64,000 bases of DNA. Source: a plasmid. The position numbers and the translations under genes are program-made. Location: sequence record CP089609.1; one strand, given 5' to 3'. The notes under the pieces are model-generated. The model ran no database searches. It saw only the letters and a list, made by a program, of their open reading frames with translations, and was not told the DNA's origin. Positions 9,055 to 61,320 of this stretch are shown here, piece by piece. Each line of letters opens with the position of its first letter. Within the stretch, counting starts at the first letter, position 1.

Positions 9055-9077
9055 GATACACCGCATTCGGTCTATAT
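9055..9077. promoter_or_regulatory. palindromic operator copy 1 (GATACACCgcattcGGTCTATAT, one mismatch)
   Basis: inverted repeat of TATACACC/GGTGTATA family in RNB-gene upstream region. Confidence 0.4.
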
Positions 9078-9194
9078 TTGCCACCACCCCTGTCCGCCCT
9101 CCTCGATGGCGGCGCGAGAGGGGCGATCGCACAGACCCCGTCCGCCCGTGCTCTTGAAAGACCCCATGCCACCCGAAAACCGGCAGCCCTGGAC

Positions 9195-9233
9195 TGACCG
9201 GATCAGCCAACCCTGTGGCATATACCTCAGGTC
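9195..9233 (+). promoter_or_regulatory. conserved leaderless promoter/start module copy 4
   Basis: TGACCGGATCAGCCAACCCTGTGGCATATACCTCAGGTC then GTG 9234. Confidence 0.55.
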
Positions 9234-9368
9234 GTGACCACCACTCCCACGCTCCCTGCCGACTGGGCCATCCGGATCCGTCCCATGCCGCGGCGTGAAT
9301 CGCTCGCACGCACCGCGCACGCACTGCGCCGCCTCAACAAGGCACCCGCACGCGGCCAAGACAACTGA
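9234..9368 (+). CDS. small leaderless ORF (44 aa, Arg-rich)
   Basis: GTG at the conserved module position; ends TGA 9366-9368. Confidence 0.3.
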   Translation: MTTTPTLPADWAIRIRPMPRRESLARTAHALRRLNKAPARGQDN

Positions 9369-9397
9369 CCCCGACACCCTTCAGGAGAAACCACCGC

Positions 9398-10315
9398 ATG
9401 GCCTACGAACGCTGGACACCCATCGCCGCGCAGAGCAACAACTGCTCCCCGCACACCTGGATCCTCTCCTGGGACCGCGACGTCGAATCTCTGCGGGCGG
9501 CGGCGCTGGCCGCCGCCTGGCAGTGGCACCTCGCCCTCGACACCACCCGGAACCACCAGCTCGTCATCGACCTCCATCAGCTCGCGGCCACCCGCTACGC
9601 CGACTACCGCGACGCCTCGACACACGACCGAAACCGCTACCTCAGCACCGTCGAGCACGTGATTCTCGCCGTAGGCCCAGGCTTCGACTGCACCAACCGC
9701 CACCTCCGGTGGATCGCCCGACTCGGCCGCACGACAGGCATTCATCTCGCCGTCGACTCCCGCCACCGCGACGACCCACTGGTAGCCGACGAGTTCATCG
9801 ACAACATCAACGGCTACTGGACGCCCATCCCCAGTGAAACCTCATATCCCAGCAGCTATAGCTATGTCAGCACCGGAGCATTACAGATCCTCACCGACAC
9901 CACCCGAGCTCATGCCGCCACGATTGACGCTCGCGCCTCGGCACTTGACACCATGTTCGCCGGCGCCGCACGCAGTGCACAGCACCTCGTCGACGCGAAC
10001 CCGCTTTCCCCCGACGATCCCCGCATCCAAGCGGTCATTGCCGCGGCCAAAAACCAGCGGTGGCGGGTCACACCGTACAACGCCGGTCGCTGCGATTTCA
10101 TCCATGACGCCAGTGACACCGCGGTGGTGGTGCGCTGGGGCACCGAGCAGCATCCGGTGCGCTACGCGGCCACCGGCCCTGTAGATGCTGAGCGCGGAGC
10201 CGACCGTCGCACCCTGGTCTCGGCCGGCAGCCCGGCCGACGGTGACCCCATCGCCGCGCTGGTGCGGTTCTTCACGCAAGCGCCCCGGCCTGACACGAAC
10301 ACGTTGAGCGAATAG
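9398..10315 (+). CDS. FtsK/SpoIIIE-derived degenerate domain protein (HLRWIARLGRTTGIHLAVDSRHRDDP)
   Basis: paralog of 15556..16902 (PHTWIxxWDxxVExLRAAALAA...RYLxxVxHVxxAVGPG...LRWIAR.G.xTGIHLAV). Confidence 0.55.
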   Translation: MAYERWTPIAAQSNNCSPHTWILSWDRDVESLRAAALAAAWQWHLALDTTRNHQLVIDLHQLAATRYADYRDASTHDRNRYLSTVEHVILAVGPGFDCTNRHLRWIARLGRTTGIHLAVDSRHRDDPLVADEFIDNINGYWTPIPSETSYPSSYSYVSTGALQILTDTTRAHAATIDARASALDTMFAGAARSAQHLVDANPLSPDDPRIQAVIAAAKNQRWRVTPYNAGRCDFIHDASDTAVVVRWGTEQHPVRYAATGPVDAERGADRRTLVSAGSPADGDPIAALVRFFTQAPRPDTNTLSE

Positions 10316-10374
10316 TCACGAAGTGCCCAAACCATCGCAGCTGGAGGACAGGACACTGGACCAACAACGATAGT

Positions 10375-10399
10375 TGTATACACCCTTTTAGGTGTATTG
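10375..10399. promoter_or_regulatory. palindromic operator copy 2 (TGTATACACCcttttaGGTGTATTG)
   Basis: inverted repeat 116 bp upstream of 10515 gene. Confidence 0.5.
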
Positions 10400-10514
10400 T
10401 TTGATCGGTTGCCACCCCATCTCATCTGCGCAGCCGCACGAGGCCTTCGCGGGCGCGAACCATGTTGCCAGGCAAGCCGGATTCGCCCGCCACGACGACA
10501 GGAGCACTCTTTTG

Positions 10515-10805
10515 ATGGCTACCCGGCGCGAACTGAAGGTCACTCACCGTTTGATCGGTCAGGACAAGGTCGACGAATTCACCGCGCTGTGTTTCGTCCT
10601 GAAATTGCGTCCTCACCAGTTGCTGAGTCAGCTGGTCACAGAGGGAGTCGCTCGGTACCGCGAGGACCCCGATCTCGACGAGGACATTCGCCAGCTCTGC
10701 CAACTACGCCAGCAGCACCTCGACCACATCAGCCACAGAGATGACGACGGTAGGAATTCCTCAGCACACCTTCCGGGTCACTTTGCCGCAGACCGAACTA
10801 CCTGA
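10515..10805 (+). CDS. small possible ribbon-helix-helix/Arc-like DNA-binding protein
   Basis: internal ATG of ORF 10392..10805; N-terminal beta-strand-like RELKVTHRLIG followed by helices; speculative fold assignment. Confidence 0.35.
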   Translation: MATRRELKVTHRLIGQDKVDEFTALCFVLKLRPHQLLSQLVTEGVARYREDPDLDEDIRQLCQLRQQHLDHISHRDDDGRNSSAHLPGHFAADRTT

Positions 10806-14150: not shown

Positions 14151-14594
14151 CTACCGGCGAAAGCTGTCCACGGTGTACCGGTCGGGATCTCTGGCGATCA
14201 ACGCCCGTTGGTGCTGATAGTGCACGTCCGAGCCCCACCACGGCGGCGCCAGCCATCCGGCGCTTCGCCCGAAGTGAAGGACTCGCTGCAGTTCGGCGAC
14301 GTGTTTGAGGCGACAGGTAACCTCGTCGGCGCTGATCACCCCATGCTTCTCCAATGCGTATATCGCCCACATGTTGTACACACTCAACGCCGGGCCGTGA
14401 CGGGTCCACTCTCCCAGATCGCTGTCCGGATCGTTGGCATGCAGTTCGATGGCCAACAGGGACAGATTGTGCGCCTCAATGAGTTCTGGACTGTCCAACG
14501 CGCACAGCGCATCTCGATACCGATAGCCGTTGTCCGCCCCAAGGCCAGGGGAGGGAACCCAGATGCGGGAGGACGCATCCGGCGAGCTAGGCAT
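14151..14594 (-). CDS. hypothetical protein
   Basis: 147-aa ORF. Confidence 0.45.
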   Translation of the reverse strand: MPSSPDASSRIWVPSPGLGADNGYRYRDALCALDSPELIEAHNLSLLAIELHANDPDSDLGEWTRHGPALSVYNMWAIYALEKHGVISADEVTCRLKHVAELQRVLHFGRSAGWLAPPWWGSDVHYQHQRALIARDPDRYTVDSFRR

Positions 14595-15279
14595 CCAAGT
14601 GCTGCGCGCCGCTGAGCGCTGCTTGACGATCGGTCTGCGGCCAGAGGACGCGTGATGCCGCGACGGCCAGTGACATGACCGTGGCCAAGCGCTGCTGTAG
14701 TGCTGCGCCGTCGGCTGGGCGCCAGCCGTTGTCGCGCCACCGTTCGGCCGCGGCCAACAGCCCCACCGAATCGTCGATGCTGTTGGTGACCTCGTGCAGT
14801 GCTGTCACGGCCGCAATGAGATGGTCGGCGTCGCCGCGGCCTTCGCAGGACGGGCAGGGTTCCTCGGCCGGTGTGCCGGCGCCGGGACTGTGCGCGTCGA
14901 GCTCGGCGTAGTCGGCACTGGCGGCCCAGCGCTCCTCAGGATGGACGGTCTTCCACGCCCGTTCAGCATCATCATGGCGCTTCCACCACAGCGCCCCCAG
15001 CGGATTCTCGACAGTGCCGCTGCCGCCGCAGTCCAGGCACTGATTCACAGCTGCTTGTTGGTTGCATGGTTCAGGTGTCCTTTGCGAGCTCGCGCTTCTG
15101 CCGTGGTCAGTGTAGGTCTGGTCACCTCCTGGATCGAGCCATGTCACCAGGACCCAGTCCATGGGAGCTGGGAGGCCTTCGGCCCGCCTACCGCGCCCGA
15201 TAGCCTGGTCCACGGACCGACTTTTATACACCCTCGCCGGTTCATAGTGTGATGTAGGGGCACCGCCCTCGATCCGCAT
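14587..15279 (-). CDS. hypothetical zinc-ribbon protein (CLDCGGSG...CPSCEGRG)
   Basis: internal ATG (MRIEGG) of ORF 14587..15477; two CxxC pairs; true start may be upstream. Confidence 0.4.
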   Translation of the reverse strand: MRIEGGAPTSHYEPARVYKSRSVDQAIGRGRRAEGLPAPMDWVLVTWLDPGGDQTYTDHGRSASSQRTPEPCNQQAAVNQCLDCGGSGTVENPLGALWWKRHDDAERAWKTVHPEERWAASADYAELDAHSPGAGTPAEEPCPSCEGRGDADHLIAAVTALHEVTNSIDDSVGLLAAAERWRDNGWRPADGAALQQRLATVMSLAVAASRVLWPQTDRQAALSGAQHLDA

Positions 15280-15516
15280 TTCATGTTGGAGCACCAAGGG
15301 ATATGACGCTCGCCGATGCGGCACTATTCGGTTACGCCAGCACCGACAACGCTCGGCCACCGGCAGTGGTGATGAGCTACGGCATGGGCCTGGATTCATC
15401 GTCATTGTTGCCGACCGCAGCTGTACTGCAGGGAATGTGACTGAGCACCTCACACACGCGGTGTGGGCGACACACACCCCGTGTGGGTCGCCTGGCTAGA
15501 GATGCGTACTGATCGT

Positions 15517-15555: not shown

Positions 15556-16902
15556 ATGAGCAACATGTCGACTCAGGCGACGACACTGGATGCCTTCAAC
15601 GACGCCCCGCACACCTGGATCGAATGCTGGGATGAGGAGGTCGAGCCGCTGCGAGCCGCGGCGCTGGCCGCCGGCTGGACGTGGCATTGCGTTGATACCT
15701 CCGAGGATCTCCCGGCCCTGCTCTGGGCCCTTGAGCTCGCCAGTTCCCGCCACCAGAACCTCATGCCGGCAGAGCGCCGGCGCTATCTGGCGGCGGTCGG
15801 CCACGTCGTGATCGCCGTCGGCCCCGGCTACCAGGGCAGCTACCGCTATCTGAGGTGGATTGCACGGGCGGGAGCGCGCACCGGAATTCACCTGGCTGTC
15901 GCTGCCAGCCACCGTCGAAACCCCCTGGCCCCTCAGGATCTCAAGGACGGCATCACCGATCCACCGAGTGCGTACGTGGGCCCGGTGTCCGGCTGCGCAG
16001 CCGCCGCGCGGTCCAGCGAGCACCCGTGGCTGCCCACGTCGCCCGATGGGCACGGGCCCGACGACTACAGCGCACCGGCGGCCGGTCTCCTGGGTGCCTT
16101 CCGGCATCGCCTGCGCCGGCGTCGTAACGCCGATCGTCGAGTCCGTCCAGAGCAGCGGGTGTGTTCGGAATCGGATCTGGCTTGGCTCGATGACGATCCT
16201 CGGGTTCAGCTGATCGTCGCTACGGCCACGCGCGAGGGATGGCGCCGTGAACCTGGCGCCCAGACGGCTGTGTGGCGGTTCGTGCACGACATCGGGACAA
16301 CCCTCACGGTGCACTGGGGGACTCCGGAGATGCCGCTACTTCACGCCGCAGCGACCGCGACGGCGACGGTACGTTGGGGCGCCGTCACCTTGCCCGTCCT
16401 GGTAGCTGCCGGCGACACCGCCAGCAGCCCGGCCGACAACATCGTCTTGGCTTGCGACGCCGACGCCCAGTGGATCGAATCGCAGATCGATCGGGTTCAG
16501 AACTTTCTCCGTAGCCATCCCGCCGAATATCGCGTCATGTCCCAGATCTCGGCCGACCCGCGCGCGCGTTCGGTGATCAATACCGCTGAGCAACACGGCT
16601 GGGAAATTCACCCGCACGACGTGGACAGGTGCACCTTCGCCCGAGGTGGAACCGAGATCTGGCTTCGCTGGGGCATCATCGATTGCCCATGGCCATTCCT
16701 CTATGCGCACACCGCCCCGCACGGCGATGGGCCCTCCGTCTACCTCTCTCATGGGGATGATCCTCCCGAGGAGCAGCTCGTGGCCATGCTGCGATTCCTC
16801 GCGGCCCCAGACACCGGCCCAACAGGCGCTTCCTCCAATGCAATCGAGCCGAAAGGCCACAGCTTCGAGTTAGGAGACACATCACTCAATACACCTAAAT
16901 AG
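15556..16902 (+). CDS. FtsK/SpoIIIE-derived degenerate domain protein (448 aa)
   Basis: paralog of 9398..10315 over the first ~130 aa (LRWIARAGARTGIHLAVAASHRRNP). Confidence 0.6.
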   Translation: MSNMSTQATTLDAFNDAPHTWIECWDEEVEPLRAAALAAGWTWHCVDTSEDLPALLWALELASSRHQNLMPAERRRYLAAVGHVVIAVGPGYQGSYRYLRWIARAGARTGIHLAVAASHRRNPLAPQDLKDGITDPPSAYVGPVSGCAAAARSSEHPWLPTSPDGHGPDDYSAPAAGLLGAFRHRLRRRRNADRRVRPEQRVCSESDLAWLDDDPRVQLIVATATREGWRREPGAQTAVWRFVHDIGTTLTVHWGTPEMPLLHAAATATATVRWGAVTLPVLVAAGDTASSPADNIVLACDADAQWIESQIDRVQNFLRSHPAEYRVMSQISADPRARSVINTAEQHGWEIHPHDVDRCTFARGGTEIWLRWGIIDCPWPFLYAHTAPHGDGPSVYLSHGDDPPEEQLVAMLRFLAAPDTGPTGASSNAIEPKGHSFELGDTSLNTPK

Positions 16903-16910
16903 GTGTATTG
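16887..16910. promoter_or_regulatory. palindromic operator copy 3 (CAATACACCTAaaTAGGTGTATTG, 11-bp arms)
   Basis: perfect inverted repeat 72 bp upstream of ligase gene. Confidence 0.55.
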
Positions 16911-16981: not shown

Positions 16982-18076
16982 ATGACCGCCGTCACTGATG
17001 TGTTCAGCGAAGACGAACTCGAGGCCGCCATCGGCAGCGGGTTCATCGAGTCTTTCCGGCATCCTCAGCTGCCACTGACCATCTACAACTACACCGAACG
17101 CGCCCAGTTTGAGACCGCCTGGAACGCCGCCACCCGCGCGTGCCGGGGCCTCATCGTCAACGACGATCGCCGGATCGTCGCCCGCCCCTGGGCGAAGTTC
17201 TTCGAGTACAAGCCGGTAGGCGGACAACACGGCCCCGTGGACCTCGACGCAGCTGTCGAGGCCACCGATAAGGTCGACGGATCTCTGGGCATCCTTTACC
17301 CCGCCGGCCACACGTGGGCGATCGCCACCCGTGGATCCTTCACCGGCAACCAGGCCGCTCACGCCACCACCCTCTATCAGCAGCGCTACGCCGGCGCCTG
17401 GTCCCCTGATCCCGAACTGACCTACTTGTTCGAGATCGTCTATCCGGACAACCGGGTCGTCCTGAACTACGGCGACACAGACGATCTCGTCCTTCTCGGC
17501 GCTTGCCGCATCGCTGACGGTGCATCCGTTACAGCAAGTTCGATCGGCGACTGGCCGGGGCCGCGTGCACAGACTCTGCCGGTCACAACCCTTCGCGATG
17601 CGTTGGCCTTCCCAGACCGGGCCAACGCCGAGGGCCTCGTGGTGACCGTGGTGGAATCCGGCCTCAAACTCAAACTCAAACAACGCGATTACGTACTCCG
17701 GCATCGCATGGTCACCGGGATGTCGGCGCTGGCGGTATGGGAGTACTTGGCCACGGGTGCGGGGATTTCAGGTCTGATATCGGATGGGCACCTTCCCGAC
17801 GAGCTCCACGACTGGGCCCGCGCCGTTGTCGCCGAGCTGCAAGGCCAGCATCTCGCGCTCAAAGATGCCGCCGAACAGGCACATGCAGAGATCATCGCGC
17901 GCCTCGAACCCGGGCACACCCGAAAGGACTATGCCGCCGAGGCTGTCAAACACGCTGACCTGAAAGGCTTCCTGTTCGCGCTCGCGGACGGGCGCCTGGA
18001 CAAGTTCGAGGCTGCGTTGTGGAAGTCCGTTCGACCTGATGCCAACGAACTGCGCTCCGAAGGGGCTTCCCGATGA
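16982..18076 (+). CDS. ATP-dependent polynucleotide (RNA) ligase-like nucleotidyltransferase
   Basis: motif I KVDGS, motif IV EGLVV, motif V LKLKLK; N-terminal RGLIVNDDRRIVARPWAKFF typical of Rnl-type RNA ligases. Confidence 0.7.
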   Translation: MTAVTDVFSEDELEAAIGSGFIESFRHPQLPLTIYNYTERAQFETAWNAATRACRGLIVNDDRRIVARPWAKFFEYKPVGGQHGPVDLDAAVEATDKVDGSLGILYPAGHTWAIATRGSFTGNQAAHATTLYQQRYAGAWSPDPELTYLFEIVYPDNRVVLNYGDTDDLVLLGACRIADGASVTASSIGDWPGPRAQTLPVTTLRDALAFPDRANAEGLVVTVVESGLKLKLKQRDYVLRHRMVTGMSALAVWEYLATGAGISGLISDGHLPDELHDWARAVVAELQGQHLALKDAAEQAHAEIIARLEPGHTRKDYAAEAVKHADLKGFLFALADGRLDKFEAALWKSVRPDANELRSEGASR

Positions 18077-18642
18077 ATCACCAGCCGCCCCGCCCCGCCT
18101 CGACCAATCACGCACCCGCCGAGCGTGGCCTCGCCCCTATACTCGGAACTTTCCCGTCTGTCAGAATCGCACTGTTCGGGCCCCGAGTCTTGTTCGCCTA
18201 CCTGGGCGCGATGAACACGCTCTACCTCATCGGCTACATGTTGGCGGCCATCTTTCCCCGGCCCCCTGCCACCATTTTGGAGTACGACACCGCGGGCGCC
18301 ATGCTGTCGGTTTTCGGCGAGGTTTTCTCCGGAATTCGAGATTTTGCCGCGCAATGGGCATTCTTCGGCGCCACGCCTTCTCCCCTCGTCGCCGGCGGCC
18401 TCGTCGTCTTTTCCCTGATGTGTGGTCACGCACTGGCGACCATGTCCCGGCCCGCCCGCCGACGGCCCGAACTTGTCGAACGCTTGATTCAGCTCCCAGA
18501 CGTGGCTGCCGATAACGGCGACCAGCTCGGCGCCGTGGACGCCAAGGATCGGGCCCAACGGACACGCGGGACAAGATCGCCGACGTACATGCCGCCCTGT
18601 CCCAGCTGGATGCGGAGTGGCTTGCTTACACCATGGACGTGA
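18073..18642 (+). CDS. integral membrane protein
   Basis: ATGA overlap with ligase gene; multiple hydrophobic helices. Confidence 0.45.
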   Translation: MNHQPPRPASTNHAPAERGLAPILGTFPSVRIALFGPRVLFAYLGAMNTLYLIGYMLAAIFPRPPATILEYDTAGAMLSVFGEVFSGIRDFAAQWAFFGATPSPLVAGGLVVFSLMCGHALATMSRPARRRPELVERLIQLPDVAADNGDQLGAVDAKDRAQRTRGTRSPTYMPPCPSWMRSGLLTPWT

Positions 18643-19097
18643 CCGCCTACTACCTCACCAAACCTGTTCTGCGGGACGCCGATACACCGCAGACTGCGGC
18701 ATACCAGGCCGCGCTCTACGAGTTGCGTGAGCGCTCAGAAGGCCTCGGCGACCATTCCAGCGACAGTCAGATCCAAGCCGCCGAGAAGGCCGCGGACTCA
18801 GCGTTGCAAGCGTGGGCGACAGCCAACGACCATGCTCTGACGGTCGGTGTCAGTGATCGCAGCCCGACCGAACGGGCCGCGCTGCGCCGTCTCCACGCTC
18901 TGATCGGCCAGTTGAGCGACCCAGCAACACCGAAGCCGATGCGCGACACCATCGTCGAGGCGATGGCCCGCGAAATGGACAAGCTGACCACGGTTCCCGC
19001 TTCACGGGAACACCTGGCGGCTTTGCCGGCATTGGCGGGACGCAACTTCGACGCAATCGCGTCCGGCCGGTCGAAGCAGCCGACTGTTGAGAGATGA
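18633..19097 (+). CDS. hypothetical protein
   Basis: 154-aa ORF. Confidence 0.45.
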   Translation: MDVTAYYLTKPVLRDADTPQTAAYQAALYELRERSEGLGDHSSDSQIQAAEKAADSALQAWATANDHALTVGVSDRSPTERAALRRLHALIGQLSDPATPKPMRDTIVEAMAREMDKLTTVPASREHLAALPALAGRNFDAIASGRSKQPTVER

Positions 19098-19122
19098 CTG
19101 TCCAGCCAGCCAGAAATGTCTT

Positions 19123-19145
19123 CATACACCGCTTCGGGTGTATAG
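19123..19145. promoter_or_regulatory. palindromic operator copy 4 (CATACACCgcttcgGGTGTATAG)
   Basis: 42 bp upstream of 19187 gene. Confidence 0.5.
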
Positions 19146-19186: not shown

Positions 19187-19522
19187 TTGACAACCACCGC
19201 TGAGCAGTTGGCCGCCTACAAGGCGCAGATCGACGCAAAGTATGCACGTGGCTACGTCCCGGCGAAATCTGCTGCCGCGCAGCGCCACCAACGGATCGCC
19301 GAGGACCGCGCTCAGCCCGGCTGGCTACTCCTCGATCCGAACGGTGTCGTTGACGGCTTCCACACCTACTCGCGTGATCTCGGCTGGGACACCACTGAAA
19401 ACGTGTGGGAGAAGTTCGAGAAGCGCAAGCGCGACCGCGAACGGCTGCAGTCAGAGGGATGGACGGTCATCCGCGACGACGGCCGAGTCCGCAACACAAC
19501 CCCGACAGCCAACGAACCGTGA
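19187..19522 (+). CDS. hypothetical protein
   Basis: 111-aa ORF, probable TTG start. Confidence 0.4.
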   Translation: MTTTAEQLAAYKAQIDAKYARGYVPAKSAAAQRHQRIAEDRAQPGWLLLDPNGVVDGFHTYSRDLGWDTTENVWEKFEKRKRDRERLQSEGWTVIRDDGRVRNTTPTANEP

Positions 19523-24183: not shown

Positions 24184-24297
24184 CCACAGTCACCACCTCG
24201 ATTCCCACGATCCGAACGGCTTGCAACGCCCCTGGACAGCGGCCGCAAACATGGTGTGCACACTTGTGCGGCACAACTGTGCGTAAAATCTGGGCAC

Positions 24298-28660: not shown

Positions 28661-29094
28661 GAGAGGCCTCCATTGCTTACCTTCGGGCGCACCCCACACA
28701 TGCAGTCCCAGATGACAACGGGGCGTTGTACCGCGTCGCCCGAAGGGCGGGGCCCCAACACAACAATGCCTGGTCGGGATTGCCGGTGCGGGCGGCACAG
28801 ACCGGACGAAGCTGGGGGTACGCCGCGCGGTGCGACGATGCGCTCCAGCCTATCGACGCGGCCACCGATTTCAACCCATGTCTGATCGCGCGCCTGACCG
28901 TTCGCTGGGTGACGCGGATCGTGAGGAACCAAGTTCCATGTGGTCTACACCGCGATCACTGCGACCTATATCGTCGAGCTCTACCAGGTCGAGCACGCCG
29001 AAGGCGGCCACACACCATCAGGGCGCCGGCCGGGTGGCAGATCGGACGGAAGCTCAGACCTGTTGGCTGGCTGTGGGATGCTCACCACTCGCAC

Positions 29095-29116
29095 TATACA
29101 CCGCCTCAGGTGTATA
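29095..29116. promoter_or_regulatory. palindromic operator copy 5 (TATACACCgcctcaGGTGTATA)
   Basis: 8-bp arms; ~100 bp upstream of deaminase-fusion gene. Confidence 0.55.
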
Positions 29117-31645: not shown

Positions 31646-31974
31646 CAACAGCAGTGATGGCTCGTCGCGAACCGGGATAATCGCCGATGGCTATCGCTAC
31701 GGCACTGATTGAGCAGTAGTCTCACGACGGTTCTCGACACACATCGATTCCCGATTACGCTGCCGCTCGCCTCGACGGCGTATACGACCTACCCGCGGTC
31801 GCCGAGCACGCAGTGGACCAGCTGGAAGCCAAGTCTCCGTTCGCATTCGAGCTGGGCCTTCTAGTCGAAGCATTCTTCGGAAACGACGAAGAAGTTGCGG
31901 TCGGGGTATCTGAAATGTTCCCCGACGAGAGACGCACCGCATCAAGTGGTCGAGTGGTTCCAACCCTACACCGT

Positions 31975-31996
31975 ATACACCTGCTGCGGTGTATAG
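31975..31996. promoter_or_regulatory. palindromic operator copy 6 (TATACACCtgctgcGGTGTATA)
   Basis: 54 bp upstream of 32050 gene. Confidence 0.55.
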
Positions 31997-34720: not shown

Positions 34721-34774
34721 TCCCGCCAATGTCCCACGCATCAGAACGAGCGCGGCACCGTCAAACCTCCACCT

Positions 34775-34795
34775 ATACACCTACTTAGGTGTATC
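34775..34795. promoter_or_regulatory. palindromic operator copy 7 (TATACACCTActTAGGTGTAT)
   Basis: 55 bp upstream of 34850 gene. Confidence 0.55.
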
Positions 34796-41926: not shown

Positions 41927-41950
41927 TATACGCCTTACTCGGTGTATAAA
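41927..41950. promoter_or_regulatory. palindromic operator copy 8 (TATACGCCttactcGGTGTATAAA)
   Basis: one arm mismatch. Confidence 0.45.
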
Positions 41951-41996: not shown

Positions 41997-42019
41997 TATA
42001 CGCCGCCGTGGGTGTATTG
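41997..42019. promoter_or_regulatory. palindromic operator copy 9 (TATACGCCgccgtgGGTGTATTG)
   Basis: 9 bp upstream of 42028 gene. Confidence 0.45.
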
Positions 42020-44088: not shown

Positions 44089-44162
44089 CTCGGCTCTGGT
44101 TACACCACGGTCTCTTCCAAGCCTCGTGTGCTGCGATCGGGATCTGAATCATGGCGCCCTCC

Positions 44163-44951: not shown

Positions 44952-45064
44952 GGCCGGAACTGCGGTGGTTCCGTCAATGTCATCGTGCGCCTTTCATCTG
45001 AAGGGGTAGAGCTGGTTTTTCTTCTGCAGCGCATGATGATTCGGTGGTCGTCATCAGGGCCATG

Positions 45065-45864: not shown

Positions 45865-46042
45865 TGCGTCGTCCCGTCTGCTCGGTGTGCAACTCAGCTT
45901 TCGGAGCCAGCGGCCGAGTCGTATCCCGCGGTTTCGCTCGATCTGCCCGATCTTCGGGCCCCAAAGCCGCCGGCATTCTCCAACTGTAGAACATACTACT
46001 CCACTTGGAGAGGTTTCTTCGCGTGTTGTATTATCGACCGCT

Positions 46043-46693
46043 ATGGAAGGCTCGGTTTTCCTCCAACAACCGGCCCCGGTCGAGTTGTCCACGGCAGACC
46101 GAATTCGCGATGCCGCGATACATTGCTTTGCCACACAAGGCATCAGCGCAACCACCATGCGCGCCATCGCTCAAGCCGCCGGAGTAGCACACGGCCTGCC
46201 ACAACACCACTTCGGCAACAAAGCCGGCCTGATCGCGGCCATCGACGACCACGTGCTGCGCGTCTTCAGCCAAGCCCTCGAATCCAACCCACTACCGGTG
46301 CCAACAGAGCCGACCGACGACTTCAGATCCCTCGGCGGCCGATTCTCCAAGCTCATCCACGACCACCCCGACGTCGTCGACTACGTGGGCCGCGCACTCG
46401 GCGAAGGCAACAACATCGGCGCCGTAATCTTCGACGGACTGCTCAAGATCAGCGCCAGACAGCGCGACACCTTCACCGCTGCCGGACTCACCAGGCCTGA
46501 CCTCGATCCGGACTATGCCGCCCTCAACCCGCTGATACTGCGCCTAGGCGCGATCATGCTGCGCCCCCACATCGCCCGCCACATCGACGGCGCGTTAACC
46601 ACACCCGCCGAGCTGCAACGCTGGGACGCCAGCGTCACAGCGCTAATTCGCCACGGCCAGTTCACATCCGACCCAGCAGAACACAGCAGCTAG
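46043..46693 (+). CDS. TetR-family transcriptional regulator
   Basis: HTH RIRDAAIHCFATQGISATTMRAIAQAAGVAHGLPQHHFGNKAGL; divergent from hydrolase gene. Confidence 0.75.
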   Translation: MEGSVFLQQPAPVELSTADRIRDAAIHCFATQGISATTMRAIAQAAGVAHGLPQHHFGNKAGLIAAIDDHVLRVFSQALESNPLPVPTEPTDDFRSLGGRFSKLIHDHPDVVDYVGRALGEGNNIGAVIFDGLLKISARQRDTFTAAGLTRPDLDPDYAALNPLILRLGAIMLRPHIARHIDGALTTPAELQRWDASVTALIRHGQFTSDPAEHSS

Positions 46694-48063
46694 CGACGTG
46701 TGACGCGGGCCGGGATCGGCCCACCCGGCACCATCGTGAACGGCACCGCCAGCGGGAAATCGTCCTCCAGCGAGGACAGCTTCACCCGACGCACAATCGA
46801 GGCCAACGCCAGCGTCGCCTCCAGCATGGCGAAGTGATCACCAATGCACGACCGGGGCCCGCCACCGAACGGCACGTACTGCCAACGATCCAGCTTCTTC
46901 ATGTTCTCCGGGGTGAATCGCTCAGGATCGAACCGCAGCGGGTCCTCCCACAGCGTCGGGTCACGTTGCACCGACATGCGGCCGAACACCAACATGGTGC
47001 CCGCCTCAACCCGGTATCCATCGACCTCCACGTCCTCGATCGCCATCCGCGTCCCCGTCGGCCCCGGCGGGCACAACCTCAAGGCCTCCCGAAGAACCTG
47101 GACGGTGTATCCGAGCTGCTCAACATCGCCCGGCGTCAGTAACCGATCGCCGATCTGGGCGACTTCGGCGTGCACGCGTTCCTGGACTTCGGATTGGCGC
47201 CCCAACTGCCACAACGCATAGGTCAGCGTCGTGGCCGTTGTGTCATGGCCGGCGAACAGGAAGATCACCAGCTCATCGCGAATCTCGTCATCAGTGAGCG
47301 GTTGCTTGGTCTCCGGGTCACGCGCGGCGATCAACGCCTGTACCAGCGGCGCATCCAGGTCGGGATCGGCACGGCACGCGCGCACAATGTCGGCGGCCAG
47401 CCCCCGAATCGTCGCTGCTGCTTCCAGGGATCGCCGCCGCGTCGGCGTCGGCAACCACGCCGGGGCGTGCAGTGGTTTCAACGCCCGGCGCACCGCGTAA
47501 CTGGTCGCCACCCGCAGCGGCTCGGCCACCACATCGGCCCGCTCATCCAGATCAAGGCCCAGCACCGAGCGGCCCAACGCACGCATCGTCAACTGACGCG
47601 CTTCGGCGTCCAGGCTGATCTGCGCGCCGTCGATCCACGCCGACACCACCATCTCTGTGGCCTCAGCCATATGGGCGCCGAAAGAATCCACCCGCTTCTT
47701 GGTGAAAACCGGTTGCAGTGTGCGCCGACGTGGTAGCCATTCCTCATGCGGCAACACAAATAGATTCCCGCCGAGCAAACGCCGAAGCTCTCGCCCCACT
47801 CCGCTGGTCTTGTCGATCGAGCCGTCGCGGACACTGACGATGTCGCGGATACCTTGAGGTGAGGTGGCTAAAACGATCGGTGGCATCAGCCAACGCGGGC
47901 CGAGGCTGAACCGGGTGACGGGGCCACCGGCGTCCCGAAGAATGTCGGTGCCGGTGTGAAAGTTCCGCAAAGCGTCACGTCGTTGCTTGTACGGCAGCGG
48001 ATTAATCGGAGCCAGCGGAAGATCCGCGACAGTTTGCTTACGCGCAGTCTCGGTCACGCGCAC
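46690..48063 (-). CDS. cytochrome P450
   Basis: heme-binding signature FGGGPRSCIGDHFA; ExxR present. Confidence 0.85.
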   Translation of the reverse strand: MRVTETARKQTVADLPLAPINPLPYKQRRDALRNFHTGTDILRDAGGPVTRFSLGPRWLMPPIVLATSPQGIRDIVSVRDGSIDKTSGVGRELRRLLGGNLFVLPHEEWLPRRRTLQPVFTKKRVDSFGAHMAEATEMVVSAWIDGAQISLDAEARQLTMRALGRSVLGLDLDERADVVAEPLRVATSYAVRRALKPLHAPAWLPTPTRRRSLEAAATIRGLAADIVRACRADPDLDAPLVQALIAARDPETKQPLTDDEIRDELVIFLFAGHDTTATTLTYALWQLGRQSEVQERVHAEVAQIGDRLLTPGDVEQLGYTVQVLREALRLCPPGPTGTRMAIEDVEVDGYRVEAGTMLVFGRMSVQRDPTLWEDPLRFDPERFTPENMKKLDRWQYVPFGGGPRSCIGDHFAMLEATLALASIVRRVKLSSLEDDFPLAVPFTMVPGGPIPARVTRR

Positions 48064-48137
48064 ACCTCCCTTGCGTCGGACATAGTCTACGACCGAGGCC
48101 TTCGGCGCCCCGGTGCCGAATCAGTGAAGGAACACCC

Positions 48138-50290
48138 ATGCAGACCGCTTACACCGCACGAGTTCTCGACCCAACCCAGCCCGGCGACAACGCCCTGCTC
48201 GACGAGCTCCGCGCCGACCCGACATCGACTTCCTCGACGACCACGACGCCCAGCTGGAAAGTCTGCGCGCACTTCGCCCCGCACCGCCCGAGGAGCTGCT
48301 GGGCGAAGATCGACGATGGGCCTACTACCCGTGGCGGCGTGCAGTCGTGGCTGTGCTCGGCCCGCGGGGATTTCAGGCATTGCGGCTCGATCGCAATCGC
48401 AACAACATCACGGCTGAAGAGCAAACCAGGCTCAGCACTCTGACGATTGGTGTGGCTGGTCTCAGCGTGGGCCACGTCATCGCCCACACGCTGGCCGCCC
48501 AAGGGCTCTGCGGCAAACTGCGCCTGGCTGACTTCGATCACCTGGAGCTGTCCAATCTCAACCGGGTGCCGGCCACGGTCTTCGACCTTGGCATCAACAA
48601 GGCCGTCGTCGCGGCCCGCAGAATCGCCGAGCTCGACCCCTACCTACCCGTCGAGGTGGTCGACACCGGCCTCAACGCCGACACACTCGACGACTTCCTC
48701 ACCGGACTCGACATCGCCGTCGAGGAATGCGATTCCCTCGACATCAAAGCCCTGCTGCGCGTCGCAGCCCGCGACCGCAAGATCCCGGTGCTCATGGCCA
48801 CCAGCGACCGCGGCATCGTCGACGTCGAACGATTCGACCAAGAACCCGAGCGCCCGATCCTGCACGGACTGCTCGGGCAACTCGACATTGATCTTCTGCC
48901 CGGCATGACCAGCCGCGAAAAGATCCCCCACGTGCTGCGTCATCTGGAAGCCGAACGCCTGTCGCCCCGCACCGCAGCATCCCTCATCGAGATCGACCGC
49001 TCCCTGTCCACCTGGCCACAGCTGGCTTCCGACGTCATCATCGGCGCGGCCGCGATCGCCGAAGCTGTACGCAGAATCGGACTCGGCGAAGAACTCCGAT
49101 CCGGCCGCAGCCGCATCGACGTCAGCTGGGCGCTGGGCCAGATCCACGAGCCCGACATGGCGCATCGCTACGAAACGACCACCGACGAGCCGAACACCCC
49201 ACAGGCTCTCACCGGCGGCCCACTCGAACACCTCGCTACAGCCGCCATGCGCGCGCCTTCCGGCGGCAACACTCAGCCCTGGCAGATCGCTCTCACCGAA
49301 GACTCCATCACGGTCGGTATCGACCCCGACCACACCTCGACCATGGACATTGAGTTCCGCGGCAGCGCCGTCGCCCTGGGTGCAGCACTGCTGAACATCA
49401 CGATCGCGGCCGCCGAACACCACGTGCTCGGCCCCATTACGGTCACCGATGCCGGCAGAGCGCCGCTGCAGGCCACTATGCGCACCACCGCCGGCGGCGA
49501 CGATCCCGCACTCGCGCGCCTTTACAAGCCCATGCTGGCGCGCGAATCCAACCGCCACCACGGGACCCCCAAGCCGCTCGACGACACCACCATCACAGCG
49601 CTCACCGCGGTGGCCGAACAGCACAACGCACGGCTGCGCCTTCTCACCCAGCGTGACGACATCGCCCAGGCCGCAACGATCCTCGCTGCGGCCGACCGGA
49701 TACGATTCCTGACCCCACGCCTACACCAGGAGATGATCTCCGAGCTTCGCTGGCCCGGCGACCCGGACCCCGACACGGGCATCGATGTCCGCAGCCTCGA
49801 ATTCGATCCCGGCGAGATGGCCGTCCTCGATGTCCTACGTCGCCCCGACGTCATGGAACAACTCGCCGAATGGGACGCCGGATCCGCACTCGGCGACGAC
49901 ATGCGAGACCGCGTCCTGGCCAGCTCAGCTCTCGCGGTCGTCACCGTAACCGGCAACGACCTACGCGCCTACGCCGCGGGCGGGTCAGCAGTCGAAGCCG
50001 TATGGATCGCCGCTCAACAACAAGGATTCGGCGTCCAGCCGGTATCCCCAGTCTTCCTCTACGCACACACACAAGCCGAACTCGAGGAACTCTCCGCGCC
50101 CTTCGCGACCGAATTGGCCGAATTGCAAAGCGAATTCAACATTCTGACGAACCTGGGACCAGACGAATCGATCGCCCTGATTCTGCGGCTGGCCGTCGCA
50201 CCGCCGGCATCGCTACCGAGCCGACGCAACATCAGCCGAGTACGTAGCGCAACGACAACAACCCACCCACTCTCCAAGGGACCTTGGTGA
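48138..50290 (+). CDS. ThiF/MoeB-like E1 domain fused to nitroreductase-like domain (MoeY-like); apparent -1 frameshift in CCC run 48218-48220
   Basis: Rossmann LTIGVAGLSVGHVIAHTLAAQG; nitroreductase-like SGGNTQPW; N-terminal 26 codons in frame 0 then frame 2. Confidence 0.6.
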
Positions 50291-52977: not shown

Positions 52978-53286
52978 TTAGAGAACCTCGCCGCGGGCCA
53001 TCTCCATGTACGACGCGAGCGCGCCGGCGGGCAAGCCGTCGTCATTGAGCCAGCCAATGCGTTGAAACTTGGCGTGGATCCGTCTCTGCGTTGCGATGTT
53101 GAGCGGTATCCACGCTGTTGGGACGGCGATGTTGGCCTTGATCACTCGGAAGAGCCACCGCCATTCCATCGCGGTGAGTTCGTCGTCGCTGGCTTTGATG
53201 CGCCGTTGTTCGTCGCGCCATTGTCGGTAGCTGTCGTTGGTCGTGCCGCTGTTGTAGATGACGGTCATAGGATGATGGTGCGCCAC
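52978..53286 (-). CDS. hypothetical protein
   Basis: 102-aa ORF; operator copy 10 lies 53 bp upstream. Confidence 0.4.
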   Translation of the reverse strand: MAHHHPMTVIYNSGTTNDSYRQWRDEQRRIKASDDELTAMEWRWLFRVIKANIAVPTAWIPLNIATQRRIHAKFQRIGWLNDDGLPAGALASYMEMARGEVL

Positions 53287-53338: not shown

Positions 53339-53360
53339 GATACACCGCATCAGGTGTATC
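53339..53360. promoter_or_regulatory. palindromic operator copy 10 (GATACACCgcatcaGGTGTATC)
   Basis: 8-bp arms. Confidence 0.55.
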
Positions 53361-53372
53361 TACTTCGGTAGT

Positions 53373-53697
53373 CATCCATCACCACCACCCGCTGCCCGAA
53401 TACCCGCGTCACGCAATCCGCGAAGAAGACCCAGTTGGGCCTCGATATCGGCGACGGGGCCTGCGGACAACAGGTATCTCTCCGAGACACCGAAGAACCT
53501 CGCGATGGCGCTCAGCTCCGCAGTGGTCGGGTCGGTCTTGTCCCCGAGCGCAACGCCTCCAAGTCCTCCACACCGATATGCACGCCGCTCTGGTCGGATA
53601 TCGCCTCAGCGGCAGCACGCGTCGACACGGGAGGTTCGCCACGCTTGTGCATGACCTCGAACAGCCGATTGATCTTCGTCGCGTGGCTCACCGTCAC
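53373..53697 (-). CDS. XRE-family HTH regulator; apparent -1 frameshift in CCCC run 53542-53545
   Basis: HTH VSTRAAAEAISDQSGVHIGVEDLEALRSG in one frame, C-terminal TTAELSAIARFFGVSERYLL in the next. Confidence 0.5.
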
Positions 53698-59320: not shown

Positions 59321-59507
59321 GATGACCTCCCCCGAACCTGTTGTGGTCAGTATCTCTCAGCGTCGGCCAGCTTTCAGGATGTCCAAGAATGCGCAAAGCC
59401 CGAGCGCCACGGTCGTCCGGCCGGGTCTCGGGCTCACTTCCTGAAGCTATTGCTCCAGACTCACAGGACTATACGCCTCTGGAGATCCCCCGCACTGCTG
59501 TCGCAAA

Positions 59508-60017
59508 GTGGGCACACCTTGGCATGGAAGAAGAGGGCATGATGACGGAGCGGACGGCAGCGCGCCAGATGAGGCGTCGATCGCGAAGGCGGCAAGTGAG
59601 CTGGTGACCTGGACCCGGGCCGAGCGCGCGGTGCGTGGTGACGACGATGAGCACGCTGCCTGGCTCGACGAAATTCTCGCCAACCTGGAGCCGTTGGCCA
59701 CTGACATGGCCGATGCGCAGACGTCGATGGCGATGCGGCGGGTAGTCCAGCCACACGGCGGCAAAGGCCGATGGTCAATCGAGGATCTGGCAGCGATGAC
59801 CGGCTGCGGTACGGAATCGGTGCGGCGGATGCTGGATCCGTCCGCAGAATTCATACCAACCTTCACACCACCTGGAAAGCGTTCGCTGACCGGTCGAGCA
59901 CATACTTGCGGTATACCCAGGTCGCCCGGTAACGCGACTGGTCAGGCAGTCGAGCAGATCTTGCCGTCGAGAAGTTGCTGGATCGGAGATTTGCTGCTCA
60001 GGGAAGCGCGATCCTAA
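59508..60017 (+). CDS. HTH protein, paralog of 50358 gene
   Basis: EHAAWLDEILANLEPLA...GRWSIEDLAAMTGCGTESVRRMLD parallels 50358 product; start and end uncertain. Confidence 0.4.
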   Translation: MGTPWHGRRGHDDGADGSAPDEASIAKAASELVTWTRAERAVRGDDDEHAAWLDEILANLEPLATDMADAQTSMAMRRVVQPHGGKGRWSIEDLAAMTGCGTESVRRMLDPSAEFIPTFTPPGKRSLTGRAHTCGIPRSPGNATGQAVEQILPSRSCWIGDLLLREARS

Positions 60018-60309
60018 GCGCTTTGCTGATCTGCTGCATGGTTGGTAGCGACAGGGTGCCGACGGATTCGGTGAGTTCGTCATGGTAGAGCTGCACGATG
60101 TCGTCGACCAGGACGAAGCCGACGAGAGGATCGGCAGCGGTCAGCGGCACCACCGTGGGGACATGCGCATTCTTGCTCGTCGTGGTGATCCGGGCGGCCA
60201 GCACGGTATCCAAATTGCGGTTGCGTGCGTTGTTGCTCAGGATCACCCACGGCTTCTTGCCGTGTCCGAGGTCCACCCGGAAGGCCTGGCTGCGCACACC
60301 CCGATTCAC
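59998..60309 (-). CDS. MazF/PemK-family endoribonuclease toxin
   Basis: RVDLGHGKKPWVILSNNARNRNLDTVLAARITTT matches MazF/PemK core. Confidence 0.7.
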   Translation of the reverse strand: MNRGVRSQAFRVDLGHGKKPWVILSNNARNRNLDTVLAARITTTSKNAHVPTVVPLTAADPLVGFVLVDDIVQLYHDELTESVGTLSLPTMQQISKALRIALP

Positions 60310-60611
60310 AGATGAGCCTCGGTCCGGCGCGTGTACCGGTCACGTGCCGTCCGGCGCTCGACATGGGCTGGTTCACTGTTGAACTCGCTGGCCAGGTGGG
60401 CGTATCCGGCGTCGAGCACATGCTCACGCAGGGCTTCGGCCCCGGCCGCAAGCAAAGCGCGCAACGCGCCTGCCTCGGACTTGACGTCACCCTCGCCGCG
60501 TTGACTTGCCCACTGGCGCAACACTTCAAAGGCGGCGGACTGCTCGTCAAGGTAAGGCGCGATGACCGCTTCGTCGGCGTCCTTGAGGATCAGACTGACT
60601 CTCTTACTCAC
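60306..60611 (-). CDS. cognate antitoxin of MazF-like toxin
   Basis: ATGA overlap upstream of toxin. Confidence 0.55.
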   Translation of the reverse strand: MSKRVSLILKDADEAVIAPYLDEQSAAFEVLRQWASQRGEGDVKSEAGALRALLAAGAEALREHVLDAGYAHLASEFNSEPAHVERRTARDRYTRRTEAHL

Positions 60612-60706
60612 AGTGCAAAATATACACCTGAAATCGGCGCATGATTACGCGCAGAACAGCGCGCGCCACCGCCACCCGCTACGCGGGCTAGTAGCCACCC
60701 CTACGT

Positions 60707-61192
60707 TTAGTGGACGCGAAGGGACTTGCGCGTATATCGCGCTTGAAAGGTGATACCGCCCCAACCCCCGCACGCGTTGACTGCGGCATAGGTCAGCTGC
60801 TGGCCAGGAGTAGCCACACCGCTGCGTAAGCACCGCACCGTGATACCAATGACACTGCCCGAATTCAGCTTTCGCTCGTGCTCCTGAAAAATAATGGCCA
60901 TCTGCCGAAGCTCGCGCACTGAAACCCCCATCCCCAGGTACCAGTACAGAGCGTTGGCCTGAGCCGCCGGCGCCGTCGTCCAAAAAGCACGGTTAGCTCG
61001 CCGCGCAGCGCTGAGATGCCGCCCCAACCGCCACCTCGCGTAGCGGCCTATCGGGAGATCACGATCGGCGAGTGTAGCGGCGAAGGCGTCAAGTTCTGCC
61101 GCTACATTCAACTCAGGATTGTCCGCAGCGCACTCTTGCGCGGACCGAGACGACTTCTTCACGACGAAGTCAGGGACGACACCTGTGGCCAT
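60707..61192 (-). CDS. hypothetical protein
   Basis: 161-aa ORF; operator copy 11 lies 103 bp upstream. Confidence 0.45.
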   Translation of the reverse strand: MATGVVPDFVVKKSSRSAQECAADNPELNVAAELDAFAATLADRDLPIGRYARWRLGRHLSAARRANRAFWTTAPAAQANALYWYLGMGVSVRELRQMAIIFQEHERKLNSGSVIGITVRCLRSGVATPGQQLTYAAVNACGGWGGITFQARYTRKSLRVH

Positions 61193-61294
61193 TTTCTACA
61201 TCTCCTTAAGGGCGGCCTTTAGTGAACTCGGACCTTCGAGGCGGCCGACCGGACCACATCACGATCCTCGCGGCATGTTGCTAACATCCCCGAA

Positions 61295-61320
61295 ATATAC
61301 ACCGCATCCGGTGTATCTAC
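61295..61320. promoter_or_regulatory. palindromic operator copy 11 (ATATACACCGcatcCGGTGTATCTAC)
   Basis: 9-bp arms. Confidence 0.55.

Follow-up and report, generated by a model that had tools for sequence, protein, structure and literature searches.

What is a short palindrome doing in front of so many unrelated genes on one mycobacterial plasmid? We addressed this question in a 64,000-nucleotide (nt) stretch of plasmid DNA (sequence record CP089609.1), called the window throughout. Exact protein matches, including UHJ58756.1 and UHJ58775.1, show that the window belongs to a Mycolicibacterium fortuitum plasmid of 220,108 bp and makes up about 29% of it; the G+C content of the window is 63%. 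Our analysis points to a 22-bp palindrome that serves as a transcriptional operator shared by about 13 promoters, with repression by occlusion as the most likely mechanism, and we put the probability of this interpretation at about 0.7. Most likely, one DNA-binding protein switches 13 gene groups together. We are more certain of the palindrome as a protein-binding operator than of the sign of the regulation or the source of the protein.

A bounded family of 13 palindromic sites

We searched the window for the pattern TATACACC-N6-GGTGTATA, allowing up to three mismatches. The search returned 13 matches where 0.02 were expected, and 13 was reached in none of 100 shuffles. The original prediction, made from the sequence without database searches, had listed 11 copies. 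All of these were present, five of them at coordinates shifted by 1-2 nt; two had been overlooked (those at 1460 and 15225, the latter the most degenerate of all), which brings the true count to 13. The sites are given below with their neighbouring genes, their scores from a position weight matrix (PWM) built from the sites and scanned over the window, and the TANNNT hexamers discussed further on. Labels such as L010, L011 and L013 to L016 denote contigs and variants related to the window.

1460..1481, minus strand: operator AATACACCCATATCGGTGTATT, 31.0 bits; in a divergent gap, 57 nt from a DUF6166 gene (905-1402, minus strand) and 157 nt from an 804-aa gene (1639-4053, plus strand).
9055..9076, plus strand: operator GATACACCGCATTCGGTCTATA, 29.6 bits; in the divergent gap between an RNB exoribonuclease gene (6838-8715, minus strand) and a 305-aa gene (9398-10315, plus strand); TATATT on the plus side; orthologous copies in L013, L014 and L016.
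10377..10398, plus strand: operator TATACACCCTTTTAGGTGTATT, 32.2 bits; TATTGT; 116 nt 5' of a ribbon-helix-helix (RHH)-like 96-aa gene (10515-10805) that heads a plus-strand array; orthologues with other spacers in L013 and L016.
15225..15246, plus strand: degenerate operator TATACACCCTCGCCGGTTCATA, 21.1 bits; between a gene at 14587-15162 (minus strand) and a 45-aa open reading frame (ORF; 15303-15440, plus strand) that is the remnant of a 401-aa PP-loop-like gene.
16888..16909, plus strand: operator AATACACCTAAATAGGTGTATT, 34.2 bits; TATTGT; 72 nt 5' of an RNA ligase gene (16982-18076; Pfam RNA_lig_T4_1), overlapping the final 15 nt of the preceding 448-aa gene.
19123..19144, plus strand: operator CATACACCGCTTCGGGTGTATA, 27.8 bits; TATAGT; 42 nt 5' of a 111-aa gene (19187-19522) that leads a long plus-strand array with PadR-like and winged helix-turn-helix (wHTH)-like proteins and an orphan Dam methylase.
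29095..29116, minus strand: perfect operator TATACACCGCCTCAGGTGTATA, 33.3 bits; 432 nt from an FtsK-like gene (27667-28662, minus strand) and 97 nt from a deaminase-fusion gene (29214-30628, plus strand).
31974..31995, plus strand: perfect operator TATACACCTGCTGCGGTGTATA, 33.3 bits; TATAGT; 54 nt 5' of a 229-aa gene (32050-32739); in the diverged variant L010 both half-sites are kept and the spacer is changed.
34774..34795, plus strand: operator TATACACCTACTTAGGTGTATC, 34.2 bits; TATCCT; 54 nt 5' of a gene for a 118-aa acidic protein (34850-35206); identical in L010.
41927..41948, minus strand: deviating operator TATACGCCTTACTCGGTGTATA, 27.7 bits; TATAGT on the minus side; left half of a divergent pair, facing a 135/151-aa gene (41467-41922, minus strand); its A-to-G deviation is also kept in L010.
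41997..42018, plus strand: deviating operator TATACGCCGCCGTGGGTGTATT, 26.2 bits; right half of the pair; TATTGT, then 7 nt, then the ATG (42028) of a 99-aa membrane-protein gene; the spacer is TCCATG in the window vs GCCGTG in L010, with unaltered half-sites.
53339..53360, minus strand: operator GATACACCGCATCAGGTGTATC, 30.5 bits; 70 nt 5' of a 96-aa gene (52978-53268, minus strand) and 12 nt beyond the stop of an EspR/Xre-like gene (53372-53692, minus strand).
61296..61317, minus strand: operator TATACACCGCATCCGGTGTATC, 32.4 bits; TATATT on the minus side; 103 nt 5' of the gene 60707-61192 (minus strand), which precedes a MazE/MazF-like pair (59998-60611, minus strand), and 12 nt beyond the stop codon of an Xre helix-turn-helix (HTH) gene of the HTH_3 family (61329-61619, minus strand).

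The scores were bimodal: the 13 sites reached 21-34 bits, the range from 10 to 21 bits was empty, and a PWM scan of five shuffled windows gave no site of at least 10 bits. The spacer was 6 nt without exception, and the cores ACACC and GGTGT co-occurred in the window solely at this gap; lone ATACACC half-sites were about as frequent as expected by chance from composition. ATACACC-N6-GGTGTAT forms a nearly invariant core; the T/A at the outer ends is less constrained (14 of 26 positions), and the full unit reads (T)ATACACC-N6-GGTGTAT(A), a palindrome of 22 bases. The sites form a sharply bounded family of 13, with no tail of weak copies.

The sites precede genes

Gene calls from near-identical Logan assemblies served as the gene map, on which 12 of the 13 sites could be evaluated for intergenic position. 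Eleven of these 12 were fully intergenic, in DNA that is only 13.6% intergenic (P ~3e-9); the twelfth was the site at 16888. A distribution that is random relative to gene starts, named beforehand as the outcome that would speak against a regulon, was thus not found within the window. Six sites (1460, 9055, 15225, 29095, 41927 and 41997) lie in divergent gaps, and the other seven lie between genes on the same strand. When the 13 copies were aligned with 40-nt flanks, conservation was confined to the 22-24 bp unit plus a one-sided 'GT' present at majority level. The arrangement is that of a plasmid regulon, with one short motif at several promoters of one plasmid, and the palindrome sits on the probable promoter of 13 gene groups.

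The half-sites are conserved across species

Proteins with 96%, 86% and 66% identity to the 305-aa protein were all encoded on contigs that carry the operator at corresponding positions. At six orthologous sites compared between the window and L013 (the 86% relative), the 16 half-site positions were 97% identical, against 42% for the spacers and 46% for the flanks; in L010 and L016, too, the half-sites were kept while the spacers drifted. The most distant contig, L015, with a neighbouring protein of 66% identity, has five copies in 11.7 kb, each 5' of a gene.

We also scanned one genome per species with the pattern, and the results are those among the matches listed (at least 120). Most of these were scattered singles, and multiple matches were found only in three Mycobacteriaceae assemblies: Mycobacterium hubeiense, with seven strong and two weaker copies in five blocks on four scaffolds; Mycolicibacterium sphagni, with three operator blocks on one 141-kb contig; and the Mycobacterium metagenome-assembled genome (MAG) nzgw94. 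The linkage of the operator to DUF6166 is kept in the window family, in M. sphagni (L147) and in the nzgw94 MAG (L151), and other pairings, among them that with the PP-loop-like 399-aa gene, are likewise conserved between lineages. The orthologue of the site at 15225 is perfect where the 399-401-aa gene is intact (L013 at 13798, L015 at 4267 and a pair in M. hubeiense L093) and degenerate in the window, L014 and L016, which have a truncated 401-aa gene or none. Because the half-sites are conserved, the pairings are maintained and the site decays with its gene, the palindrome appears to be a site that is selected for protein binding and linked to the gene behind it. The central idea of the original prediction, a multi-copy palindromic operator that ties diverse genes into the regulon of one dimeric protein, gains support from position, symmetry, strict spacing and this phylogenetic footprinting.

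A scan of metagenomes with an 18-base pattern gave singletons only, and five high-GC contigs that were compared share no proteins with the plasmid family. In unrelated metagenome contigs, an identical palindrome lies 2 nt 5' of a 71-aa ORF (MRTNIVLNDKLIREAMRLTG...), with listed positions L193 187-208, L197 783-804, L199 709-730 and L203 858-879. The ORF may encode a VapB-type RHH antitoxin. L203 has two ACACC-N6-GGTGT palindromes between an integrase gene and an Xre HTH gene. Since these palindromes adjoin VapB-like and Xre genes in unrelated contigs, the ACACC/GGTGT geometry seems to be used by autoregulators elsewhere.

Overlap with a probable -10 element

On the gene-facing side, the outer half-site together with two extra bases, mostly GT, reads TAT(A/T)GT, a TANNNT hexamer. 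TANNNT is the -10 element of mycobacterial promoters. Such a hexamer was present on exactly one side at 10 of the 13 window sites and on both sides at none; it was also one-sided at all five L015 sites and at five of the six L013 sites. The excess of one-sided 'GT' had a P value of 3e-5 (at least 8 of 26 sides carrying it). At the site at 41997 and at both sites of M. hubeiense L154, the hexamer is followed by 7 nt and then the start codon, which suggests leaderless mRNAs; the leaders at the remaining sites are 40-110 nt long and end in Shine-Dalgarno sequences. For the gene that faces the site at 41927, the gene call in L010 and the sequence point to a shorter, 135-aa start at 41874, with a Shine-Dalgarno sequence ahead of the start codon.

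We infer that a protein binds these sites and picture its action as follows. In the form of a symmetric dimer or a dimer of dimers, it would read both ATACACC half-sites, whose 5-bp cores, ACACC and GGTGT, are spaced 11 bp apart, or one helical turn. The gene-facing half-site would merge into the probable -10 hexamer (T19-A20-T21-N-N-T24, usually TAT(A/T)GT). The bound protein would cover about -31 to -10, with its centre near -20, and would block RNA polymerase or open-complex formation, which amounts to repression by occlusion. Over the whole plasmid, this would work as a switch: the genes would be expressed at a low level in an established plasmid and in a burst when the repressor is absent, for example just after transfer.

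Several observations weigh against this interpretation. The sites at 1460 and 53339 lack TANNNT at the canonical position; the former has a TAATGT hexamer 3 nt further downstream on the minus side, and the latter has none on either side. At 29095, TATAGT is found solely on the minus side, toward the distant FtsK-like gene and not the nearer deaminase-fusion gene. The copies had been predicted to lie 5-140 bp upstream of a gene start; on database gene calls, 12 of the 13 sites are 4-116 nt from one, but the site at 9055 is 321 and 339 nt from its two divergent genes, the furthest of all. No conserved -35 hexamer was found at the putative promoters for spacers of 16-19 bp, and a scan of 9-20 kb with an E. 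coli-type sigma-70 consensus gave no full promoter match; the -10 elements are predicted from the sequence. The absence of a clear -35 is usual for mycobacterial promoters. No recognisable DNA-binding family recurs beside the operator in all lineages sampled. The window also holds no relaxase or origin of transfer (oriT), and because it has no relaxase, the term 'leading-type' used below for part of it is an analogy.

Alternative explanations

The operator might be read by a regulator on the host chromosome that the plasmids have recruited to time gene expression. Across the lineages sampled, no regulator encoded on the plasmids accompanies the operator throughout. Four Mycobacteriaceae genomes or plasmid families also share an identical operator, with neighbouring proteins of just 45-66% identity; this is easy to explain if a conserved host factor reads the site. 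However, a wide host regulon should give chromosomal matches in many species, which was not seen among the matches listed; there, the genomes with multiple matches were the three Mycobacteriaceae assemblies, on contigs with mobile-element-like genes (ParB-like, DUF6166 and AbiE), and eight other mycobacterial plasmids, examined in part or in full, contained zero copies. We consider a host regulator unlikely and take the protein to be probably encoded by the plasmid. Slightly less probable is a role in positive control, as an activator site or as a specificity element for a plasmid-encoded sigma-like factor. Promoters with no recognisable -35 are common among activator-dependent promoters, and in M. 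sphagni L169 a sigma-70-like ORF (2722-3615) lies in an array downstream of an operator copy. The geometry argues for repression instead: the centre of the dyad falls near -20, some 7.5 nt before the -10 hexamer, whose first four bases are covered by the site. A position overlapping the -10 is that of a classic repressor, whereas class I and II activators bind at -41.5 or -61.5. MerR-type activators bind dyads between -35 and -10, but the clear -35 with a 19-20 bp spacer of such promoters is not present here and the dyad overlaps the -10 itself. For sigma recognition a perfect two-fold symmetry would be unexpected, and Pfam scans detected no sigma-like protein in the window.

A hairpin acting in RNA (as a terminator, processing signal or translational signal), or in the single strand that enters the recipient during conjugation, could in principle also explain an inverted repeat. 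The copies can form a stem of 7-10 bp with a loop of 4-6 nt at -8 to -15 kcal/mol as RNA, one was called terminator-like by a consensus scan, and seven lie between same-strand genes. Yet the stem sequence is invariant and shows no co-variation, and no compensating change accompanies the mismatches at 9055 and 15225. Folding energies of -4 to -15 kcal/mol came mostly with weak z-scores, and no fold was obtained for the degenerate copy. In a replicon of 63% GC the base of the stem is rich in AT, a consistent U-tract is missing, a terminator would be pointless for the six copies in divergent promoter gaps, only the gene-facing side has the extra 'GT', and no Rfam match was found. Passages of a survey of leading regions describe structured single-strand promoters, Frpo, on other plasmids (PMC11541004). 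As described in these passages, Frpo elements are far longer than the 22-bp unit found here, with its stem of 7-8 bp, and rebuild a double-stranded -35 and -10 (PMC11541004). A hairpin function thus seems very improbable. A mobile or recombination repeat that accumulates between genes (a miniature inverted-repeat transposable element (MITE), a repetitive extragenic palindrome (REP)-like element or a recombinase site) would account for a multi-copy intergenic palindrome on a mobile replicon with insertion sequence (IS) elements (IS607-like at 38.7-41.4 kb; IS110 and IS605 in variants). The original prediction had also named a MITE-like repeat with target-site duplications as an outcome that would speak against a regulon; the alignment of the 13 copies with 40-nt flanks contained no shared flanks, terminal repeats or target duplications. 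Moreover, the positions are orthologous in diverged relatives and not polymorphic, and the orientation to the downstream gene is fixed by the one-sided -10-like hexamer, which makes a mobile repeat hardly credible.

Candidate regulators

We compared at least seven candidate regulators with the distribution of the operator; none accompanies it in all lineages. Four had been proposed from the sequence beforehand: the RHH-like protein at 10515, the wHTH protein at 19709, the Xis-like protein at 24298 and the HTH paralogues at 50358 and 59508. The RHH-like gene is the first gene behind the operator at 10377, a classic autoregulatory layout, but its homologues are confined to the M. fortuitum-type family despite the identical operator in other species; it had only three close homologue clusters, none of them in other operator-bearing species. 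Its AlphaFold2 (AF2) model had a predicted local distance difference test (pLDDT) score of 60, and a Foldseek search of PDB gave no match below E=1; sequence matches to designed TIM barrels appear spurious. For the Xis-like protein, a distant homologue (of the N-terminus of 24298-25209) is encoded at the paired-operator locus of M. hubeiense, but the predicted recognition helix differs. An M. mageritense element that lacks the operator encodes a homologue of the PadR-like protein at 19709 with 69% identity. A close variant that does bear the operator is missing the segment with the MarR-like gene at 59508, and 50358 is called there as a shorter, 71-aa gene. Several of the four proposals are thus weakened, and none is confirmed.

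The M. hubeiense locus (L154, scaffold54, 1700-2850) is a divergent gene pair with leaderless-type spacing and degenerate operators at 1973 and 2050. One gene of the pair encodes an 88-aa excisionase/MerR-type HTH_17 protein, a good candidate for the regulatory switch of that M. hubeiense element. In the window, a different perfect palindrome, GTGTGCACAC, lies at 24240-24285 directly 5' of the HTH_17/DUF4926 gene (24298-25209) and may be the gene's own operator.

M. hubeiense encodes a homologue (45-49% identity) of the Xre proteins whose genes follow the PP-loop gene on other plasmids; the window has only a weak one (61329, E ~0.06). The 135-aa protein beside the paired operators at 41927 and 41997 gave an uninformative AF2 model (pLDDT 54). 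The EspR-like protein at 53372 was down-weighted: homologues occur in operator-free elements, and the gene is frameshifted in the window. A 150-aa basic protein (34268-34720) was rejected, its homologues at 82%, 77%, 54%, 44% and 40% identity all being in operator-free contexts. This protein is the best conserved between the window and M. hubeiense (~80%), its gene is coding (mismatches by codon position 17/13/53), and it is rich in Arg and Trp; identity was 77% to M. mageritense and 40% to Gordonia sihwensis, and no Pfam or PDB match was found. It is a widespread ORFan of actinobacterial mobile elements.

Over two thirds of the plasmid lies beyond the window, and the regulator may be encoded there. 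More speculatively, the operator might be read by a protein with no recognisable DNA-binding domain, such as the zinc-ribbon protein DUF6166; the circuit would then drive a burst of expression of anti-defence and establishment genes, most of them uncharacterised, when a mycobacterial plasmid enters a new cell. The DUF6166 next to this operator has so far been found solely in operator-bearing elements. We regard this idea as doubtful; if true, it would define a new family of repressors as well as the first establishment regulon in Actinomycetota.

Comparison with known systems

In function, the nearest analogue is Reg576 of the Bacillus pumilus plasmid p576. This RHH repressor controls its own gene and, by way of repeated heptamers, silences four promoters of establishment genes; it has been shown to allow transient expression after transfer and has deviating copies at its own promoter (PMC6294495). 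As there, a short motif recurs at several promoters of presumed establishment genes on one plasmid, at or inside a core promoter that is here predicted from sequence, and the proposed logic is de-repression after entry until the repressor accumulates. The deviating operators in the spacer of the Reg576 gene's own promoter are comparable with the pairs at 41927/41997 here and at 1973/2050 in M. hubeiense L154. In contrast to Reg576, with its direct 'dual' heptamers (TTATCCC, 2-nt gap) at four promoters, the plasmid studied here has about 13 promoters with an inverted repeat of 7+7 nt around a 6-nt gap. The RHH nature of Reg576 is proven; here the sole RHH-like candidate, 10515, is putative and confined to one lineage. 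The host of p576 belongs to Bacillota, not Actinomycetota.

KorA and KorB represent the global regulons of RK2. ArdK and KorA proteins of IncW, IncN and IncP plasmids are plasmid-encoded dimeric HTH repressors and resemble the proposed system in using one motif in several dispersed promoters, including those of leading-region genes; KorA-type members read inverted repeats, and ArdK of R388, which has five target genes, sits on direct repeats as an asymmetric dimer (PMC9723621). Their operator sequences, however, are unrelated to the 22-bp palindrome, and Pfam detected no KorA- or ArdK-like protein among the window proteins.

Mycobacteriophage stoperators of the L5 type are asymmetric repressor-binding sites of about 13 bp, oriented with transcription and acting inside transcription units. 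They share with the present sites the many dispersed copies of one short sequence, mostly intergenic, in a mycobacterial mobile genome. Here, by contrast, the site is symmetric, 22 bp long and located at promoters; phage hallmark genes are lacking, and no viral contig has a motif cluster. A phage origin was rejected: the phage collection gave no megablast match to the window, no PHROG hallmark was present among 10 large ORFs, and viral contigs had singleton motif matches only.

CRP/FNR-type sites have the form TGTGA-N6-TCACA. The 22-bp site contains the same 5-N6-5 geometry, consistent with a dimer touching two successive major grooves, but the half-site differs in sequence and polarity (ACACC...GGTGT), and no cyclic nucleotide monophosphate (cNMP)-binding or CRP-like protein was found in the window.

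A different palindrome, GTTGCCTATAGGCTACA-N5-6-TGTAGCCTATAGGCAAC, with 17-bp arms, is present on MOBF plasmids of M. arabiense, M. madagascariense, M. farcinogenes and M. gallinarum, in the divergent promoter between a ParB-N or Dcm gene and a PP-loop-like gene:

L208, 19878-19915
L209, 19942-19980
L210, 15651-15690
L211, 19879-19918

It resembles the present operator in its location at the divergent promoter of the homologous 399-aa gene and in its TATA-containing arms around a centre of 5-6 nt. It is unlike it in sequence and in its longer arms, and it occurs just once per plasmid in the regions examined. On three of the four plasmids, the operon continues from the PP-loop-like gene into a small Xre HTH gene. 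The palindrome is likely an autoregulatory operator, local rather than part of a regulon; to our knowledge it has not been described so far. The comparison suggests that one lineage may have expanded a local autoregulatory site into a plasmid-wide regulon.

The present system is set apart from the known ones by a 7-6-7 inverted repeat fused to the probable -10, by copy number, by host phylum and in having only candidates for the repressor. Our literature search found no matching motif and no comparable regulon for mycobacterial plasmids; the circuit belongs to a known type of plasmid control that is apparently undescribed for mycobacteria. The principle is well known from other plasmids, and the significance is moderate. 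Gene regulation on large mycobacterial plasmids appears little studied, and such plasmids carry ESX/type VII secretion, defence and metabolic genes between species. One 22-bp operator that ties together about 13 transcription units offers an experimental handle on a master regulator, and a palindromic operator over a mycobacterial -10 could serve as a compact repressor-operator tool for mycobacterial genetics.

The plasmid and the genes under the probable operator

A close relative is found on a 240-kb M. conceptionense contig, and near-identical copies exist in many Logan assemblies. When a 24-kb query from the window was compared with the plasmid collection, the sole match was a methylase gene, 80% identical; no annotated operator-bearing plasmid was found in PLSDB with three protein probes, the 24-kb window DNA and an M. 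hubeiense DNA block. Most of about 50 window proteins remained without a family in Pfam scans. Recognisable proteins included an RNB exoribonuclease, a T4-type RNA ligase, a deaminase fusion and an orphan Dam-type methylase; further features included two weak FtsK-like matches, Fic, PIN, MazEF, the IS607-like insertion and a P450/TetR/ThiF-nitroreductase block.

Most of the units behind the operator are arrays that run in one direction and encode small proteins and nucleic-acid enzymes. They include the RNB exoribonuclease, RNA ligase, deaminase fusion, PP-loop-like protein and MazEF cassette, with the orphan Dam methylase further down one array. Homologues of window genes (the PP-loop-like 399-401-aa gene, Dam methylase, RNA ligase and DUF6166) occur on other mycobacterial plasmids in arrays near or adjoining a MobF relaxase; these arrays run largely in one direction and also carry ParB-N, NrdH and DUF932 genes. 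By this resemblance to MOBF mycobacterial plasmids, much of the window is probably an establishment or leading-type region, and a link of the regulon to plasmid establishment would follow the same analogy. Membership in the regulon would functionally link genes that are almost wholly unannotated: the RNB nuclease, RNA ligase, deaminase fusion, PP-loop-like protein, DUF6166 and many ORFans. According to passages of the leading-region survey, such regions concentrate anti-defence genes, methylases and toxin-antitoxin genes on one strand (PMC11541004). In Actinomycetota, which those passages do not include among their examples (PMC11541004), the regulon genes are candidates for establishment or anti-defence roles.

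Minor observations

Four genes have frameshifts or an in-frame stop when compared with near-identical Logan copies: the 341-aa gene (18073-19098), the 471-aa deaminase fusion (29214-30632), the EspR-like gene (53372-53692, with a 1-nt deletion in a C5 run near 53541) and a 177-aa gene (at 35485-35487). These disruptions look like homopolymer sequencing errors and not biology.

The metabolic block at 43282-50290 (methyltransferase, dienelactone hydrolase, TetR, cytochrome P450 and ThiF-nitroreductase fusion) has zero operator copies. Its cytochrome P450 has close chromosomal homologues in the M. fortuitum group, and the block is therefore probably more recent cargo outside the regulon. The IS607-like insertion (38667-41398) comprises a 104-aa ORF, a 196-aa serine recombinase and a 530-aa TnpB-like protein with a weak Cas12f1-like TNB match; it is absent from L010, and the variants L007 and L010 have IS110 and IS200/IS605 insertions at other places. 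The cassette 59998-61317, made up of the operator at 61296, a 161-aa gene and the MazE-like and MazF-like genes, is absent from the otherwise close variant L011. Its MazE-like and MazF-like genes are 78-87% identical to a pair on an M. farcinogenes plasmid, and the cassette appears to be cargo that came with, or acquired, its own operator.

The 305-aa (9398-10315) and 448-aa (15556-16902) proteins are paralogues with about 32% identity, each encoded 3' of an operator copy; the family of the 305-aa protein has four clusters among 5.8 billion proteins. In M. sphagni L169 (contig_16, 1968-3615), an operator is followed by two small ORFs and then by a 297-aa ORF with a sigma-70 region-2-like sequence (...FDYTQGYKFSTYASWWIR). 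On the M. avium plasmid pMAH135 (L206, NZ_AP012556.1), the relaxase-adjacent array contains six copies of a palindrome-rich intergenic repeat of about 180 nt or more (at ~28746, 29692, 31565, 32844, 33918 and 35284), each 5' of a gene, and this repeat may be a different, structured way of controlling leading-region genes.

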